Source of the DNA: a virus
Lineage: Duplodnaviria; Caudoviricetes
DNA: 64,000 bases
IMG/VR virus record: IMGVR_UViG_3300032312_001422
Location: 128,001-192,000 of that record
Reading direction: 5' to 3' (one strand)
The position numbers were made by a program, and so were the translations under genes. A model generated the notes under the pieces. That model searched no databases. It worked only from the letters and a program-made list of their open reading frames with translations, and was not told where the DNA came from. Shown one piece after another: positions 23,460-37,773 of the stretch (positions are counted from its first letter, which is position 1; every line of letters begins with the position of its first letter).

Positions 23460-24302
23460 ATGTCCAAAAATAAAGATAAAAACAAAGATAAAAATAAAAA
23501 TAAAGATCTACTATTTGATGCAATCAAAGCTACACAATACGTAAATGAAGCACCGTATCATCCCGGATACGAAGATGCTGTAATGCACATGAGCGATAAA
23601 GGTTACGAAGAAGGCAAGTATCTAGCCGATGCTATCCGATTTAATATGAAGCGTGATAAAAAACGTTTCTGGGCTGGTGACAACATCAGTGAATACTTGC
23701 ATGAAGGTGATAAAGAACGACTAATCGATGAAGCTACAGAAGCTTTTGAACGAGTGTTAGATACCTTGCTGATTGATCGTGAGAATGATCCTAACTCAAA
23801 AGGTACAGCACGTCGTTTGGCCAAGATGTATTTTAACGAAATTATGGAGGGCAGATATGCTCCAGCGCCAGATGCAACAGCTTTTCCAAATGATTCAGCG
23901 GATAGATACGAAGGTATGCTTGTGGTTCGTAGCGAACTGCGTTCTATGTGCAGTCACCATCATCAGCCTGTGTCTGGTGTTGCTTACATCGGAATCATTG
24001 CCGCAAATAAACTTATTGGCTTGTCTAAATATACTAGGATCGCTCAGTGGTGTGCTCGTCGTGGCACACTTCAAGAAGAACTATGTAACGACATCGCAAG
24101 AGAAATAATGCGGGCCACTGAATCAGAAAACGTGGGTGTGTATATCCAAGCGGTACACGGGTGCTGTGAGAATCGTGGCATTATGGCACACTCTAGTCTA
24201 ACGCAGACTACTGTGTTGCGTGGTAGTTTTCAAACAGACCCAGGAACCAAAAAAGAGTTCATGGACAATATTAAACTACAACAGGACTTTGCTCCTCGTT
24301 AA
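23460..24302 (+). CDS. folE: GTP cyclohydrolase I
   Basis: SMCSHHHQP, IGLSK, LQEE, HGCCENRG. Confidence 0.95.
   Translation: MSKNKDKNKDKNKNKDLLFDAIKATQYVNEAPYHPGYEDAVMHMSDKGYEEGKYLADAIRFNMKRDKKRFWAGDNISEYLHEGDKERLIDEATEAFERVLDTLLIDRENDPNSKGTARRLAKMYFNEIMEGRYAPAPDATAFPNDSADRYEGMLVVRSELRSMCSHHHQPVSGVAYIGIIAANKLIGLSKYTRIAQWCARRGTLQEELCNDIAREIMRATESENVGVYIQAVHGCCENRGIMAHSSLTQTTVLRGSFQTDPGTKKEFMDNIKLQQDFAPR
23466..23507 (+). repeat. short AAAAAYAAAGAT-type tandem repeat encoding KNKDKNKDKNKNKD
   Basis: Read directly at the folE 5' end. Confidence 0.7.
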
Positions 24303-26254: not shown

Positions 26255-26704
26255 ATGGCAAAGTATTACTCAACAAAACATTACGGACACAACATTGGAT
26301 TGAGTGCTGTATTTAGACAGCCCAATGCCGATCATAGTCACTGTCACTTGCTACATGGCTACAGTCTAGCGTTTACATTCACATTTGGTTGTGATCAGCT
26401 AGACAACAAAAACTGGGCAGTGGACTTTGGCAGTCTCAAAGAACTAAAAGCCTGGCTAGAAGATCACTTTGATCACAAATTGGCTCTGGATCAACAAGAT
26501 CCGCACTTGTCCAAGTTCGAAGAATTACAAGCATTGGATCTGGTAGAGATCAGAATATTTGATGGTGTGGGTGCAGAGAAGTTTGCCGAGCATGCTTTCA
26601 ATTTTGCCGATCGATTGATTAGAGAAAAGACCGATGGTCGTTGCTATTGTGTCAGAGCAGAATGTGCCGAACACGGAGCCAATAGTGCAATCTACGAAGG
26701 TTAA
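26255..26704 (+). CDS. queD: 6-carboxytetrahydropterin synthase
   Basis: HCHLLHGY; VDFGSLK; FDHKL; AEKFA; EHGANSAIY. Confidence 0.9.
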   Translation: MAKYYSTKHYGHNIGLSAVFRQPNADHSHCHLLHGYSLAFTFTFGCDQLDNKNWAVDFGSLKELKAWLEDHFDHKLALDQQDPHLSKFEELQALDLVEIRIFDGVGAEKFAEHAFNFADRLIREKTDGRCYCVRAECAEHGANSAIYEG

Positions 26705-33563: not shown

Positions 33564-33851
33564 ATGTCTAGACCCAAGCCAACCGTACTGTTGGACCACG
33601 TTAATAAAACCACTTACAAGAGCGAGCAAGTGCTGGCCTCTGAAGGTATCTGGGCGGTGTTCTACGACAATCAACCTATCAATCTCAAAACACACAATAT
33701 TCTAGTGAGTTACCCCGGTCCCAAGTACAAAAAAGTAAGCTTCAGCAATAGCGGACATGCAATCAACCTCTGCAAGAAACTCAACACCTTGTTCAAGACT
33801 GACAAGTTCAGTGTGGTACTGTTACGTGCCGGCGACAAAATCTTCCCATAA
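33564..33851 (+). CDS. hypothetical basic protein
   Basis: GATAAATA and AAGGA upstream. Confidence 0.75.
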   Translation: MSRPKPTVLLDHVNKTTYKSEQVLASEGIWAVFYDNQPINLKTHNILVSYPGPKYKKVSFSNSGHAINLCKKLNTLFKTDKFSVVLLRAGDKIFP

Positions 33852-34212
33852 GCGTTACACTCAACGTCAACTGACAAAAATATTTGTTGAACAGGCTGAC
33901 TTTCCCATTGGCCAAACTACCGACCTGCAACTGCGTTGGTGGAAGAATCCCACAGACGACACCAGCCTAAGATTGAGTCTTGCCGGCCTACAATTTGTCA
34001 AGGCTGTGCTCAAACTACAAAGTTACGAATTTGCCTTGCCCAAAGAACTGACCAATCATCATTTGTTGAAATTGGAACGACAGTTCCGAAGCATGTATTA
34101 CCTGCTCAAACGTCAGAAAATTATAGTGTTTGAAGAAGAAGAAGCCATGATGCTGACCTTACACGGCAATGACCTGGCGTTGTATTTAGACAACATAGAA
34201 TCAACCAATTAA
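33757..34212 (+). CDS. hypothetical protein (true start probably downstream)
   Basis: ORF track; N-terminus overlaps the previous gene. Confidence 0.55.
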   Translation: MQSTSARNSTPCSRLTSSVWYCYVPATKSSHKRYTQRQLTKIFVEQADFPIGQTTDLQLRWWKNPTDDTSLRLSLAGLQFVKAVLKLQSYEFALPKELTNHHLLKLERQFRSMYYLLKRQKIIVFEEEEAMMLTLHGNDLALYLDNIESTN

Positions 34213-34241
34213 TTGACATAAAGTATTATTCCTATTATAAT
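34213..34241 (+). promoter_or_regulatory. consensus sigma70 promoter
   Basis: TTGACA-17-TATAAT exact. Confidence 0.8.
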
Positions 34242-34263
34242 ATAATTATTATCAATTAAAAGG

Positions 34264-34644
34264 ATGTTGATTATGAGACCGTTATGCGTTAATCATGGAT
34301 GCAAACGACTAGCTATGGAAAGTCATAAAGACGCCGCCGGCAATGTTCGATATCGTGTACATTGCGGGCATTGCCAAAAAGCCAGCTACGGCGGCCATTC
34401 GCACAGTCCTGGGGTCACTCCGTTTAAGACCGGTCGGTGCAGCAATGATGACGGTCACTTAGGATTTAACTGTTGCATTGATTATAAAAAAGCACCCTGG
34501 GCAGTTGGCATGACAGAAATTGATCATATCAACACAGACCCGCACGATAATAGATTAGAAAATCTACAAGAGTTATGTCCAATGTGTCACAAAAGAAAAG
34601 GCCGAGTAAATGGCGACTATAAAAGAAAAACGTATCTTGCTTAA
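34264..34644 (+). CDS. HNH endonuclease
   Basis: EIDHIN...NRLENLQELCPMCH; additional CxxC motifs. Confidence 0.85.
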   Translation: MLIMRPLCVNHGCKRLAMESHKDAAGNVRYRVHCGHCQKASYGGHSHSPGVTPFKTGRCSNDDGHLGFNCCIDYKKAPWAVGMTEIDHINTDPHDNRLENLQELCPMCHKRKGRVNGDYKRKTYLA

Positions 34645-35182
34645 AGAATCATTGAACAAGTTTACCAAAGCAAACTATACCAAAGTTAAACGCAGTACAA
34701 ACACTCATTGTGAAAGTTTAGCCATTACCGTTTCGGAACTTGAGCGACTAATTGGTCTGTATAGAGGTAATCATACTCCGCAAACTGCTCGGTTGATTCG
34801 AGACAGTATAGATCATTGGATTCGTAGATACCACGGATATGTGATTGAGGGAGGCATTGGTGCTCATTACAGCCAAGTGGGCGTAGACTTAAAGAACTGT
34901 ATTTTTGAGCATGTTATTCCTGCTGCCAAAGTTCGTGACATGCTTATACAAGGCGTATTAACTGCACCGCAGGCATTGAATACTCCCACTTGCTTTATTA
35001 GTAAAACAAACGATCAGTTGTTGCGTGATCATAAACGAGTGAGTACCAGTCCCGATTATTGGAATTTCTTCAAGCGTTACGATATATTTGACAATGTAGA
35101 ATTTTGCACGTATAATGGTGTTAGTATAGATCAGACAACCTGGACATTGGAAGATCACTTTAATTTCTTTAAGAATATATGA
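34610..35182 (+). CDS. hypothetical protein, possible His-Me nuclease
   Basis: FEHVIP followed by TCFISKTND. Confidence 0.6.
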   Translation: MATIKEKRILLKESLNKFTKANYTKVKRSTNTHCESLAITVSELERLIGLYRGNHTPQTARLIRDSIDHWIRRYHGYVIEGGIGAHYSQVGVDLKNCIFEHVIPAAKVRDMLIQGVLTAPQALNTPTCFISKTNDQLLRDHKRVSTSPDYWNFFKRYDIFDNVEFCTYNGVSIDQTTWTLEDHFNFFKNI

Positions 35183-35946
35183 TACCACTAATAACACAAA
35201 ATATAGCGACTAACATAGCCGGGCATACTCAGCAGGCATGGACCTATGGTGTGCCCAATGGCGATACTGGAGAAATTGTTGTTGCCTGTGGAATTAAACC
35301 ATTCTACGACGGTGCCGAGCAAAAAGGTGGTTCAACTACTATTGTAGATGTCAAAGTAGATCATGTAGCATACGATATTAAATGTAGAGATGTGCTGGGC
35401 ATTTTTACTCGAGAACCAAGTGCTAAACAAAAATCTGCCGATCAAAATTATTATAAGGTAGATGAAAATTTATTTGTACGAGTACCTAAGTCGGTTGAAA
35501 GCCCAGTTAGACGCCCTAGTGTAGACCTTGAAAACTTTCAAGGTAACTGCCAAACTATTATTACAGAACAAATACAAGAATATAAAGACTATGCTGATAG
35601 AACTACCGCAGATGCAGGATGCACTGAATTGCGTAGTTTGCTTTTTCTGTATGGACGTAATAAAGGATATAAAGCTATCTACATAGAAGAACAACCGTTT
35701 AATACCCCAACCCCTACTAGTTTTGATATCTATAAAAACACTAAAGGTAAACCGGCGGCATACTATGCACGTGATCACAAACTATTATACAAGTTATTAG
35801 ACTACAGCAAAGGTAGTACTAATTTTGTTAAACGATTTGATTGCACTAACGGATACCTATTTGTATGGCCTGATAAATTTTTATCTAATAAAATCACAGA
35901 TATCATTGAGTGGAAAGTTCACGGAAATCATTCATTAATAATATGA
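35179..35946 (+). CDS. hypothetical protein, possible PD-(D/E)xK restriction-like nuclease
   Basis: E...IVDVK...YDIK spacing; weak motif. Confidence 0.5.
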   Translation: MIPLITQNIATNIAGHTQQAWTYGVPNGDTGEIVVACGIKPFYDGAEQKGGSTTIVDVKVDHVAYDIKCRDVLGIFTREPSAKQKSADQNYYKVDENLFVRVPKSVESPVRRPSVDLENFQGNCQTIITEQIQEYKDYADRTTADAGCTELRSLLFLYGRNKGYKAIYIEEQPFNTPTPTSFDIYKNTKGKPAAYYARDHKLLYKLLDYSKGSTNFVKRFDCTNGYLFVWPDKFLSNKITDIIEWKVHGNHSLII

Positions 35947-36995
35947 GTTACTTAGAAGAAATTAAAAAGAAATACGATATTACAGATTACAAAGAAGCTA
36001 GTGTAGCGATACCCGAGCTTCCTACTGATGGTATTGTATTAATTGTAGGCACATCAGGCTCAGGTAAAAGTACTATCCTACGCAGTTTAAATAATACTCA
36101 TGCTCCTACCATTAGCCCATGTGCTGATGTTATCAGTAACTTTTCTACTGCTGAGCGAGGAGAAGAATTGTTACTGGCTTGCGGATTGCGTAGTATTCCT
36201 GCTTGGTTCCGAGCACCTAATACATTAAGTAATGGCGAGTACCATAGATTTGAAATGGCCTTGTTCTTAGATCAGGGTATCAATATTGTTGACGAGTTTA
36301 CCAGTGTTGTTGATCGTGATACTGCCAAAAGTCTTGCCCTAAGCATTCGTAAGTTTTACGATCGTCAAGGTAGTACCAATCCGTTGTACATTGCCAGTTG
36401 CCATAGAGACATAGTAGAATGGTTAGATCCAGACTACGTATATGACACAGATCTCTGTGTCTTAGAAAATCGGAGGTCACCCTTTCGACTGGGGACAAGA
36501 CCAGAACTTGCACTCACCATCAAAAGCTCAAGTGTCGACTATTGGAGATATTTCAGTAAGTATCACTATCTAGACACAGAAATTAGTAAGAGTGCTCATT
36601 ACTATGTGTTACTGTTAGGCGACAAGCCCATTGGCTTCCATGCCGCAATACATTCAACTAACAGAGATATTCATTCGTACTGGCGTGGTCATCGTACAGT
36701 AATCCTACCCGAGTTTCAGGGCATGGGTATAGGCACAGCATTTAGCGACGCTATTGCTGAAATATATGTGAGCCGTGGTCTAAGATACTTTAGTAAGACT
36801 GCTCATCCCAGCTTTGGTGAACACAGAGAAAAGTCAGACTTATGGCGCCCTACATCAATGAATCGGAAGAGTCGTGTGGGCAGTTACTTGAACAAGGACG
36901 GTACGGCACGTGAGATGAAGGGCTATGGCGGTACAACCACTGTTCGCGATGCTTATAGGGTTTGTTACAGCCATGAATACATTGGTAAGAAATAA
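35943..36995 (+). CDS. ABC-type ATPase fused to a GNAT acyltransferase (Mom-like)
   Basis: GTSGSGKST, LSNGE, IVDEF, ASCH; GNAT KYHYL and RTVILPEFQGMGIG. Confidence 0.85.
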   Translation: MSYLEEIKKKYDITDYKEASVAIPELPTDGIVLIVGTSGSGKSTILRSLNNTHAPTISPCADVISNFSTAERGEELLLACGLRSIPAWFRAPNTLSNGEYHRFEMALFLDQGINIVDEFTSVVDRDTAKSLALSIRKFYDRQGSTNPLYIASCHRDIVEWLDPDYVYDTDLCVLENRRSPFRLGTRPELALTIKSSSVDYWRYFSKYHYLDTEISKSAHYYVLLLGDKPIGFHAAIHSTNRDIHSYWRGHRTVILPEFQGMGIGTAFSDAIAEIYVSRGLRYFSKTAHPSFGEHREKSDLWRPTSMNRKSRVGSYLNKDGTAREMKGYGGTTTVRDAYRVCYSHEYIGKK

Positions 36996-36996
36996 T

Positions 36997-37749
36997 ATGA
37001 AAAAATTTGACAGTTTGGTCGTACTTGGTGATAGTTGGTCTTGGGGATCAGAGTTGTCAGAGGATACTCGAGTGGCCAGTAGATTTGATACGCTATTAGG
37101 AAACCAACTTGGACTAGAATGTGTCAATTTATCTAGAGAAAGTGCATCAAATTTTTGTCTTAAATGGCACTGGCTTGATTGGATTTCAACCAACCCTGTG
37201 TATAAAAATCCTTTGGTGATTGTGGGCATCACTGGACCTAACCGTTGGTTAATTTATAATAATCAAGCAGAATTTTTTCAAGAAGGCGGTGGCGGCCGTT
37301 TAGTAAACGAAGACGTAGTAATGTCCAATTGGGGCAACTCTCAAAAAACTGGCGGCTTTATAAGAGCATTTCCCAATTACATCGATGCACCAACTCCAGA
37401 AAAAACACGCTGTCAAGAAAATTTCTATCGTTACAATTACAACGATACCATGGCAGAAATTTATGCCATATGGGAAATTAATCAAATAAACTCAATGGTA
37501 CAATCATTTGGTGGCCAAGCAATATTTTGGTCTAATTTTCACAAATATACACAGGTCAATATGCCTTGGTGTCAACCCTTGCTAAAAACAATTCATTTGG
37601 TTGACGATCTGCAACCAATTGCAACCTTATTAAGAGCTGAAAGAAACATGCTGTGCCGTGGCGGGCACCCAAATGCAGACGGCCACAAATATATACAGCA
37701 TAGATTAATAAAATATATAGCTTCTGTTGCTGAAAAACAACACCCGTAA
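36997..37749 (+). CDS. SGNH-hydrolase-like protein
   Basis: LGDSWSWG; GGHPNADGH. Confidence 0.7.
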   Translation: MKKFDSLVVLGDSWSWGSELSEDTRVASRFDTLLGNQLGLECVNLSRESASNFCLKWHWLDWISTNPVYKNPLVIVGITGPNRWLIYNNQAEFFQEGGGGRLVNEDVVMSNWGNSQKTGGFIRAFPNYIDAPTPEKTRCQENFYRYNYNDTMAEIYAIWEINQINSMVQSFGGQAIFWSNFHKYTQVNMPWCQPLLKTIHLVDDLQPIATLLRAERNMLCRGGHPNADGHKYIQHRLIKYIASVAEKQHP

Positions 37750-37773
37750 CCCCCTGTTTTTAGGGGGTTTTTT
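37748..37773 (+). terminator. rho-independent terminator
   Basis: AACCCCCT-GTTTTT-AGGGGGTT followed by TTTT. Confidence 0.8.

Follow-up and report, generated by a model that had tools for sequence, protein, structure and literature searches.

A five-gene unit with an ABC-ATPase-GNAT fusion and nuclease-type genes in a hypervariable slot of an uncultivated jumbo phage

Do overlapping nuclease-type genes that share a promoter with a fusion of an ABC ATPase and a GNAT acyltransferase form one restriction-modification (R-M) system, in which a phage marks its own DNA by acylation and cuts DNA that lacks the mark? The question is raised by a locus in a 64-kb stretch of DNA (the window), positions 128001-192000 of the IMG/VR record IMGVR_UViG_3300032312_001422, which is linear, 288,815 bp (288.8 kb) long, and ~80% complete. 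A reading of window positions 34213-36995 from the letters alone (here the sequence-only reading) had proposed an acylation-based R-M island. We found the locus to be a tight unit of five genes, here called HNH126, orf190, orf255, ABC-GNAT, and the SGNH-like gene (Table 1). Several points speak for the proposal, namely, the tightness of the unit, a protein with a restriction endonuclease fold, an HNH gene, a family predicted to make acyl modifications, the lack of a methyltransferase, and a genomic slot that carries R-M-type genes in relatives, but the idea of a single system failed when we counted how often the genes occur together. With somewhat better than even confidence, we read the locus as one compact unit in a hypervariable hot-spot of an uncultivated jumbo-phage clade, built of five modules that have been exchanged independently and not of one coevolved system. 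Near relatives were not found among GenBank phages (megablast of the island, no match), and the record is therefore assigned to an uncultivated jumbo phage.

For comparison, we collected IMG/VR loci anchored on ABC-GNAT (77 loci), orf190 (80), orf255 (14), and the conserved upstream gene orf95 (80). The loci were scored with BLAST and with profiles from our own alignments, which gave 65 distinct contexts for ABC-GNAT, 71 for orf190, and 13 for orf255. A cellular set was taken from a scan of 185,579 bacterial and archaeal species, one genome per species, in which 80 loci were kept out of at least 568 ABC-GNAT relatives.

Gene exchange between conserved flanks

ABC-GNAT stood alone of these families in 26 of its 65 contexts. 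It was accompanied by orf190 in 22, by a ParB-like gene, X, also in 22, by HNH126 in 9, at varying positions, and by orf255 in 2, and the SGNH-like gene was present in 2 of the 77 ABC-GNAT loci. Counted from the other side, ABC-GNAT was found in 10 of the 71 orf190 contexts and 2 of the 13 orf255 contexts. The five-gene array as it stands in the window was common to only one near-identical relative, and 27 of the 35 orf95-anchored loci with enough downstream sequence held none of the island genes. The sequence-only reading had named a lack of co-occurrence elsewhere as grounds for refutation, and such a lack is largely what we see.

Alignment with the closest relatives, whose flanks are 91-96% identical in DNA, showed where the exchange takes place. 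Similarity (to loci L019 and L040) stops at 34203/34212, just before the promoter; ABC-GNAT is the only part of the island over which it resumes (79-85%), until the right flank begins to match at 37723. In locus L010, the segment 34466-35138, which comprises the end of HNH126 and orf190, is swapped (39% protein identity), with the breakpoint at 34466 inside HNH126, and the orf255 protein is 100% identical. Compared with the closest relative, the window carries the SGNH-like gene as an insertion; L010 has no such gene and lacks 36996-37722. Between orf151 and ABC-GNAT, we counted 25 distinct versions of the slot, which together carry at least 27 gene families. The cargo in relatives includes an N6_N4 methyltransferase (6e-39), N6-methyltransferase-like and Eco57I-like genes, ResIII helicases, HNH genes, nucleases, a cell-wall hydrolase, and a ParB-like gene. 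Since the same slot is filled with such R-M-type cargo in relatives, 34213-37722 is a recombination hot-spot rich in DNA-conflict genes that lies between conserved flanks. Methyltransferases coexist with ABC-GNAT in relatives, and therefore acylation does not visibly replace methylation.

Such cargo can be seen at L057:4376-6002, L012:2940-4851, L014:1868-6005, L041:1236-4446, and L008:7058-7897; the arrangements upstream of ABC-GNAT include a 268-aa gene with the N6_N4 methyltransferase, an ~250-aa gene with the N6-methyltransferase-like gene, and ResIII helicases with Eco57I-like methyltransferases. On the left flank, orf95 is 74-96% identical in the 80 loci kept, has at least 600 matching IMG/VR stretches, and marks a very large uncultivated phage clade. 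The orf95 open reading frame (ORF) overlaps orf151 by ~95 nt in another frame; orf151 is far less conserved (~30-99%).

These patterns bear directly on the proposal that the nucleases and ABC-GNAT make up one phage-borne R-M system, with acylation by the GNAT marking self DNA and the nucleases cutting what is unmarked. Such a system would accord with the single promoter-to-terminator unit of overlapping genes, with the intact active site of the restriction-endonuclease-fold protein orf255 in a record that lacks a methyltransferase, with the predicted acylation of DNA bases by the ABC-GNAT family, and with the R-M-type genes in the slot of relatives. However, orf255 and ABC-GNAT meet in only two contexts of either sample, HNH126 joins ABC-GNAT in only nine, and in both phages and cellular genomes ABC-GNAT is found either by itself or with ParB-like genes. 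Near-identical phages swap the HNH126 and orf190 alleles, or do without orf255 and the SGNH-like gene, yet keep ABC-GNAT, and relatives hold methyltransferases and ABC-GNAT together. We consider a single acylation-based R-M system very unlikely.

As a transcription unit, the locus is compact and well delimited: 34213-37769 runs from promoter to terminator, covers all five genes, and reaches past 36995, where the sequence-only reading had ended it. HNH126 overlaps orf190, as that reading had stated; orf255 shares an ATGA overlap with orf190 on one side and with ABC-GNAT on the other, and a single base separates the ABC-GNAT stop from the SGNH-like ATG. The same A-T-A-T-G-A stop/start overlap flanks orf255 on both sides (junctions 35165-35195 and 35929-35959), and in relatives without orf255, orf190 is joined straight to ABC-GNAT via an ATGA overlap (junctions in L037, L038, L016, and L063). 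The exact consensus promoter reported at the left edge was borne out. Exact copies of TTGACA-17-TATAAT were found only at the two sites of Table 1 in the 64 kb, versus 0.05 expected, and six sites with at most one mismatch were found in the window, all on the + (coding) strand, versus 0.92 expected; the phage therefore uses sigma-70-type promoters, the two best of which lie inside the unit. Parts of the cluster had been described as rich in AT, and relative to the whole record (guanine-plus-cytosine content [GC], 42.1%) this holds for orf255 (36.5%; GC at third codon positions, 25%), orf190 (38.2%), and the SGNH-like gene (38.6%), but not for ABC-GNAT (41.9%) or HNH126 (43.6%). The pattern of overlaps is what a cassette-like insertion of orf255 exactly between orf190 and ABC-GNAT would leave.

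Table 1. Features of the transcription unit, its left flank, and the deazaguanine-type genes, in window positions
Feature	Position	Strand	Basis or remark
Exact sigma-70 consensus promoter (TTGACA-17-TATAAT)	34213-34241	+	12/12 match; left edge of the variable island
HNH126, free-standing HNH endonuclease gene, 126 aa	34264-34644	+	Cys/His-rich N-terminal half; HNH profile matches
orf190 (FEHVIP protein)	34610-35182	+	Pfam-orphan phage-specific family; start may instead be TTG 34637
Second exact sigma-70 consensus promoter	35088-35116	+	In the orf190 3' end, 63 nt before the orf255 start
orf255, type II restriction-endonuclease-like PD-(D/E)xK protein (predicted)	35179-35946	+	AlphaFold2 fold and invariant motif; ATGA overlap with both neighbors
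ABC-GNAT (ABC-ATPase-GNAT fusion)	35943-36995 (longest ORF from GTG 35910)	+	phrog_11143; ABC ~residues 1-190, GNAT ~200-330
SGNH/DUF6071-like esterase candidate, 250 aa from M25	36997-37749 (longest ORF 36925-37749)	+	Motifs by eye and Atlas neighbors
Intrinsic terminator	37748-37769	+	9-bp GC-rich stem and T-run; closes the unit
orf95, 95 aa	33564-33851		Conserved upstream gene
orf151	33757-34212		Left border of the slot
FolE	23739-24272		2.7e-40
QueD/PTPS	26318-26701		1.7e-14

ABC-GNAT and its ParB-like partner

To judge from the homolog alignment and the sequence, the real start of ABC-GNAT is likely the ATG at 35943, within the ATGA overlap with the orf255 stop. In Pfam, the protein matched ABC_tran (2.7e-5) and Acetyltransf_1 (1.1e-5, above the cut-off); PDB ABC ATPases aligned with it over the signature and Walker B, and the function-unknown family phrog_11143 matched it at 2.7e-78 over its full length (residues 5-360). 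Invariant across 42 homologs were, in the ABC part, Walker A (G47..K53), the signature (S107/G109/E110), Walker B (D128-E129), and the H-loop (H165) and, in the GNAT part, H219-Y220-L221 and V264..P267..Q270-G271-x-G273-x-G275, with its Q-G-x-G-x-G acyl-CoA loop. The fusion and its HYL and V.P.FQG.GIG motifs had thus been recognized correctly from the letters alone.

The closest GenBank relative was QAX98348.1 of Aeromonas phage AsFcp_2 (37% identity over 99%), the exemplar of a phage family of ABC-ATPase plus GNAT proteins predicted to make an acyl modification of a DNA base (Iyer et al., Viruses 2021, PMC7824862). No experimental work on the family was found in the literature searched. The window gene resembles phrog_11143 and the Iyer family in its full-length homology, two-domain architecture, intact ABC and GNAT motifs, and occurrence in a jumbo phage; it differs in that the usual ParB-like neighbor is missing and nuclease genes and the SGNH-like gene flank it. 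The prediction of DNA modification that the sequence-only reading had invoked is real (PMC7824862), but the family is not described as Mom-like. In a Pfam scan at E 0.1, a search by profiles and not a direct comparison with the Mom sequence, the GNAT part matched only the generic Acetyltransf_1/_7/_6/_10, and no sequence tie to Mom emerged. ABC-GNAT shares with Mu Mom the GNAT superfamily, the phage setting, and a proposed anti-restriction role in DNA modification, whereas Mom has no ATPase domain and the literature treats ABC-GNAT as a separate GNAT family.

In the Mu-like Burkholderia phage phiE255 (L087 3947-5679), the ABC-GNAT protein gp29 is encoded after the tail fiber genes and is followed by an overlapping gene for a Formyl_trans_N protein (2.9e-21). 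This is the place that com-mom occupies in Mu, and at this mom position the two phiE255 proteins may work as a pair of enzymes in an acyl/formyl modification. Two other ABC-GNAT homologs (L012:4833-5900 and L069:6001-7017) have an in-frame stop in the tblastn match and may be pseudogenes or assembly errors. PADLOC matches of ABC-GNAT to mad3, mad8, and PtuA covered the P-loop only and were set aside as uninformative. A general link of ABC-GNAT to deazaguanine (e.g., acetyl-preQ1) was likewise rejected, since QueD is lacking in five complete GenBank phages that encode ABC-GNAT.

ABC-GNAT is conserved in the company of a ParB-like protein rather than of a nuclease. Besides the 22 phage contexts in which X stands beside ABC-GNAT, the Leptospira phage LE3 has a ParB_N gene that overlaps the ABC-GNAT gene start. 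The relatives in bacterial and archaeal genomes, at least 568, include many from Planctomycetota, Nonomuraea, and gammaproteobacteria (e.g., Endozoicomonas) and some from archaea (metagenome-assembled genomes of methanogens). In the 80 cellular loci kept (L265-L344), the ORF just upstream of ABC-GNAT clusters at ~180-230 aa (~185 aa for the ParB_N-type gene). At least 41 of these 80 ORFs align with an L-I-D-G-H-L-R motif, and the sole Pfam family matched among them was ParB_N (12 of the 41, best 1e-12); the two genes make up a widespread putative pair. An hhalign comparison of X with the cellular ParB_N partners placed the expected motifs in register, with an E-value of only 0.029. Distant ABC-GNAT homologs lie in replication modules, beside genes for DnaB, ERF, Prim-Pol, and an SF1 helicase, or else beside ParB-like genes, but not beside nuclease genes. 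X was not found in the 288.8 kb of this ~80% complete record (X profile, E 1).

ParB-like proteins have been shown experimentally to activate phage thymine dioxygenases that act after replication (2026 PNAS, PMC13229309). Because of the ParB-like pairing and this precedent of ParB-activated DNA-base enzymes, the context of ABC-GNAT lends support, by analogy, to a DNA-directed role. The likeness to these 5mYOX T-dioxygenases (PMC13229309) lies in a ParB-like gene immediately upstream of a phage gene for a nucleic-acid-modifying enzyme; the differences are that an Fe/2OG dioxygenase takes the place of the GNAT and ABC ATPase and that the window has only one member of the pair.

Alternatively, ABC-GNAT may modify not DNA but a protein (host RNA polymerase, a ribosomal protein, or a defense protein), RNA, or a small molecule. 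There are models for this, as phiKMV Rac acetylates protein and the ATPase-coupled TmcA acts on RNA. The GNAT part, with its canonical acyl-CoA loop, matches only the generic Acetyltransf_1/_7, no DNA-binding domain was recognized in the protein, and the adjacent SGNH-like esterase candidate, like other tailoring enzymes that the genome encodes, is a hint of chemistry on small molecules or glycans. On the other hand, ABC-GNAT is consistently found beside ParB-like, methyltransferase, and replication genes in phages and prophages, it holds the Mom-equivalent position in phiE255, and enzymes that modify DNA bases are known to be activated by ParB-like partners. A target other than DNA is, in our estimate, unlikely.

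The ABC-GNAT family is thus very widespread, with the cellular relatives above and many phages. It is said to have been defined, and predicted to make acyl modifications of DNA bases, by Iyer et al. in NAR in 2013. What is new here is that a ParB-like protein is its conserved partner, that ABC-GNAT anchors a hot-spot at which one jumbo-phage clade exchanges nucleases, methyltransferases, and helicases, and that in this record, which has no methyltransferase and comes from a genome with probable deazaguanine DNA, it is ATGA-coupled to orf255 with its restriction endonuclease fold. The main value of the locus is as a pointer to one enzyme family and two nuclease-type families, and not to an integrated acylation R-M system.

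The nuclease-type genes

The sequence-only reading had called the orf255 product a possible PD-(D/E)xK protein, and this assignment was confirmed by the predicted fold. The AlphaFold model built with its alignment (predicted local distance difference test [pLDDT], 92.6) has the alpha/beta core of restriction endonucleases. E32 (in helix 28-39), D57 (just before strand 58-60), and D66-I-K68 (in strand 63-71) are invariant in 35 homologs, and the protein is a predicted nuclease with an intact E...D...D-x-K site. Its structural matches were type II PD-(D/E)xK enzymes (3ndh, HinP1I, SwaI, NaeI, and EcoRV) and Hjc resolvases. Unlike type II restriction endonucleases, orf255 is phage-borne, sporadic, and AT-rich and has neither a cognate methyltransferase nor a sequence-level family; we found 33 metagenomic homologs, and its sequence fell into no family of Pfam, PHROGs, NCBIfam, or PADLOC. 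A tblastn search of 50,697 GenBank phages gave no match to orf255, and none to orf190 or the SGNH-like gene. In 8 of its 13 contexts, orf255 has orf190 upstream, in 7 of these together with X; four contexts have no orf190.

Structure prediction had also been suggested for orf190, and here it gave no convincing fold despite a pLDDT of 95.8. The family has 277 homologs (161 representatives at 50% identity) and 22 invariant residues, and in the AlphaFold2 model three helices make up the N-terminal part, whereas the C-terminal part is alpha/beta. The FEHVIP sequence that had been taken for His-Me-like is present, as part of a motif F-E-H101-x-I-P ... N124 ... [D/H/N]135 (E100-H101-x-x-P104), whose elements follow a strand-strand-helix order in the model. 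Motif and order would fit a His-Me finger, which makes orf190 a candidate nuclease only; the best named structural neighbor was an HNH_2 cluster of the Atlas at a weak template modeling (TM) score of 0.48. Searches of PDB (with Foldseek and VIA), AFDB clusters, BFVD, and the Atlas returned no convincing named match, and the N-terminal helical hairpin dominated the PDB lists. GmrSD_C (DUF1524, PF07510) and HNH_2 (PF13391) had no match in the genome, orf190 included, even at E 10. Pfam scans of 63 family members and 10 distant representatives assigned no family; 2 of the 63 matched HNH_4, at an E-value of only ~0.1.

Two other identities were considered for orf190 and rejected. Residues 60-143 gave a PDB profile match to the ribosomal protein bS6 (E 0.0012) via W-x-R-R ... 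A-H-Y, a stretch that forms a beta-hairpin in bS6 and an alpha-helix (57-83) in the pLDDT-96 model; the match is probably coincidental. Comparisons by hhalign with the ParB-like protein of LE3 and with the alignment of cellular ParB_N partners gave no sign of a relationship to ParB-like proteins.

The usual neighbor of orf190 is X, which is adjacent in 50 of the 71 orf190 contexts; orf255 is present in 2 of the 71. X is a ParB-like protein of 350-440 aa with Q-R and D-G-Q-H motifs, whose Atlas neighbors are ParB_N, DUF6551, and GmrSD_N clusters and which had no sequence match in Pfam, PHROG, or PDB. Genes for X directly upstream of orf190 homologs can be seen at L016:3207-4430, L017:4206-5417, L011:3061-4296, and ~50 more loci. 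By analogy, X and orf190 in relatives look like a split module of the GmrS/GmrD type, a type IV restriction enzyme (GmrSD) made of a DUF262 ParB-like half and a DUF1524 His-Me half. The likeness is one of sizes, motifs, and order, as orf190 homologs (~185 aa, E-H-x-x-P ... N) follow the 350-440-aa D-G-Q-H protein; the differences are the lack of a GmrSD_C or HNH_2 match in orf190, the weak fold match, and the absence of the ParB-like half from the whole record. In the window, orf190 stands apart from X, with HNH126 in the place of X. Here it is probably still functional, because all residues invariant in the family are kept.

The HNH assignment of the first gene was upheld. HNH126 matched eleven HNH families of PHROG (best E 6.8e-8), with the HNH profile match extending over the catalytic motif; in Pfam, it matched HNH_3 at 1.8e-5 and 24.7 bits, 0.1 bit short of the cut-off of 24.8, and HNH at 1e-3. 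Its PADLOC matches, to ZorE-type HNH models, were weak.

Self-marks and the working of the unit

If the predicted nucleases cut DNA, what would spare that of the phage? The absence of a DNA methyltransferase, claimed for the cluster, extended to the whole 288.8-kb record, in which PF01555, PF00145, and PF02086 had no match. Type II R-M systems link a nuclease to a methyltransferase or a demonstrated protective modification; neither was found for orf255, which has ABC-GNAT beside it in only 2 of its 13 contexts. FolE and QueD, both encoded in the window, suggest 7-deazaguanine DNA as a possible self-mark of the phage. With its bases substituted in this way, a genome would need no cognate methyltransferase, and the substitution would be a simpler candidate for the self-mark than acylation.

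The 4-mer palindromes most depleted genome-wide are CGCG and GCGC, each with an observed/expected ratio (O/E) of 0.52; 126 CGCG and 191 GCGC sites remain. Palindrome avoidance was rejected as evidence of nuclease specificity, both being depleted and not absent. Among longer palindromes, ACGCGT, AGCGCT, and TGCGCA are absent from the genome, and GTGCAC has an O/E of 0.31.

A methyltransferase-free scheme can be drawn from these elements, in which one or more nucleases of the island, above all orf255, would destroy unmodified DNA and the DNA of the phage would be exempt by 7-deazaguanine, an acyl mark, or both. We regard this scheme as rather doubtful; if true, it would mean that a phage carries a restriction system in which hypermodified bases are the key. 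A related possibility is that orf190 and orf255 are a two-gene nuclease module derived from an array of a ParB-like gene, orf190, and orf255, which would attack unmodified DNA, with the 7-deazaguanine DNA of the phage immune and ABC-GNAT an unrelated neighbor. T4 nucleases, which cut cytosine-containing DNA, offer an analogy. The possibility draws on the 8 of 13 contexts in which orf190 lies directly upstream of orf255, with an ATGA or near overlap, 7 of them with the ParB-like gene; on FolE and QueD in the window and the missing methyltransferase; and on the best structural matches of orf255 being enzymes with G/C-only sites, along with the depletion of CGCG and GCGC. However, there are the four orf255 contexts without orf190, and orf190 is far more widespread than orf255. 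The many CGCG and GCGC sites that remain also speak against it, such depletion being common and uninformative on specificity; structural neighbors do not predict recognition sites, and the deazaguanine content of the phage is unproven. We think it rather improbable that the two genes act as such a module.

The reading that we favor, of independently exchanged modules, assigns the parts as follows. ABC-GNAT would be the most persistent element, a post-replicative, ATP-dependent acyltransferase whose substrate may be DNA or another nucleic acid; in other genomes it would normally cooperate with the product of the ParB-like gene just upstream, and its probable purpose is to evade restriction. The orf255 gene would be a recent, AT-rich acquisition with its own perfect promoter, encoding a predicted endonuclease of restriction enzyme fold. 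HNH126 would be a free-standing, homing-type HNH nuclease, orf190 the small subunit of the ParB-like plus orf190 module, similar to split GmrS/GmrD and stranded here without its partner, and the SGNH-like gene one more insert. For the nucleases, the most likely roles are attack on host or competitor DNA or selfish homing. If a self-mark is needed, the 7-deazaguanine pathway may be at least as plausible a source as acylation.

Several points weigh against this reading. ATGA-coupled genes behind one perfect promoter are the expected look of a single system, and in many relatives orf190 directly precedes ABC-GNAT or orf255 with a stop/start overlap; there may be some functional coupling among orf190, orf255, and ABC-GNAT. 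The target of ABC-GNAT could be protein or RNA instead. The missing part of the ~80% complete record could hold a ParB-like partner or a methyltransferase, and a DpdA-like deazaguanine transglycosylase was not detected in the genome with the TGT model PF01702. The locus samples were drawn around the query genes, and their members are not phylogenetically independent of one another. Finally, the biochemical activities and targets of all island proteins are ones that we infer, as distinct from the gene structure, folds, motifs, synteny statistics, and breakpoints, which were observed.

The last gene of the unit is the SGNH-like one. Its protein shows, by eye, a G-D-S-W-S (GDS) block and a C-terminal G-G-H-P-N block and had no Pfam match at E 0.1. 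Its language-model neighbors in the Atlas, at a score of 0.97, were clusters of DUF6071 (39-40% of members) and Lipase_GDSL (11%), and the Atlas record of the protein begins at M25. Weak paralogs of the gene are present elsewhere in the genome.

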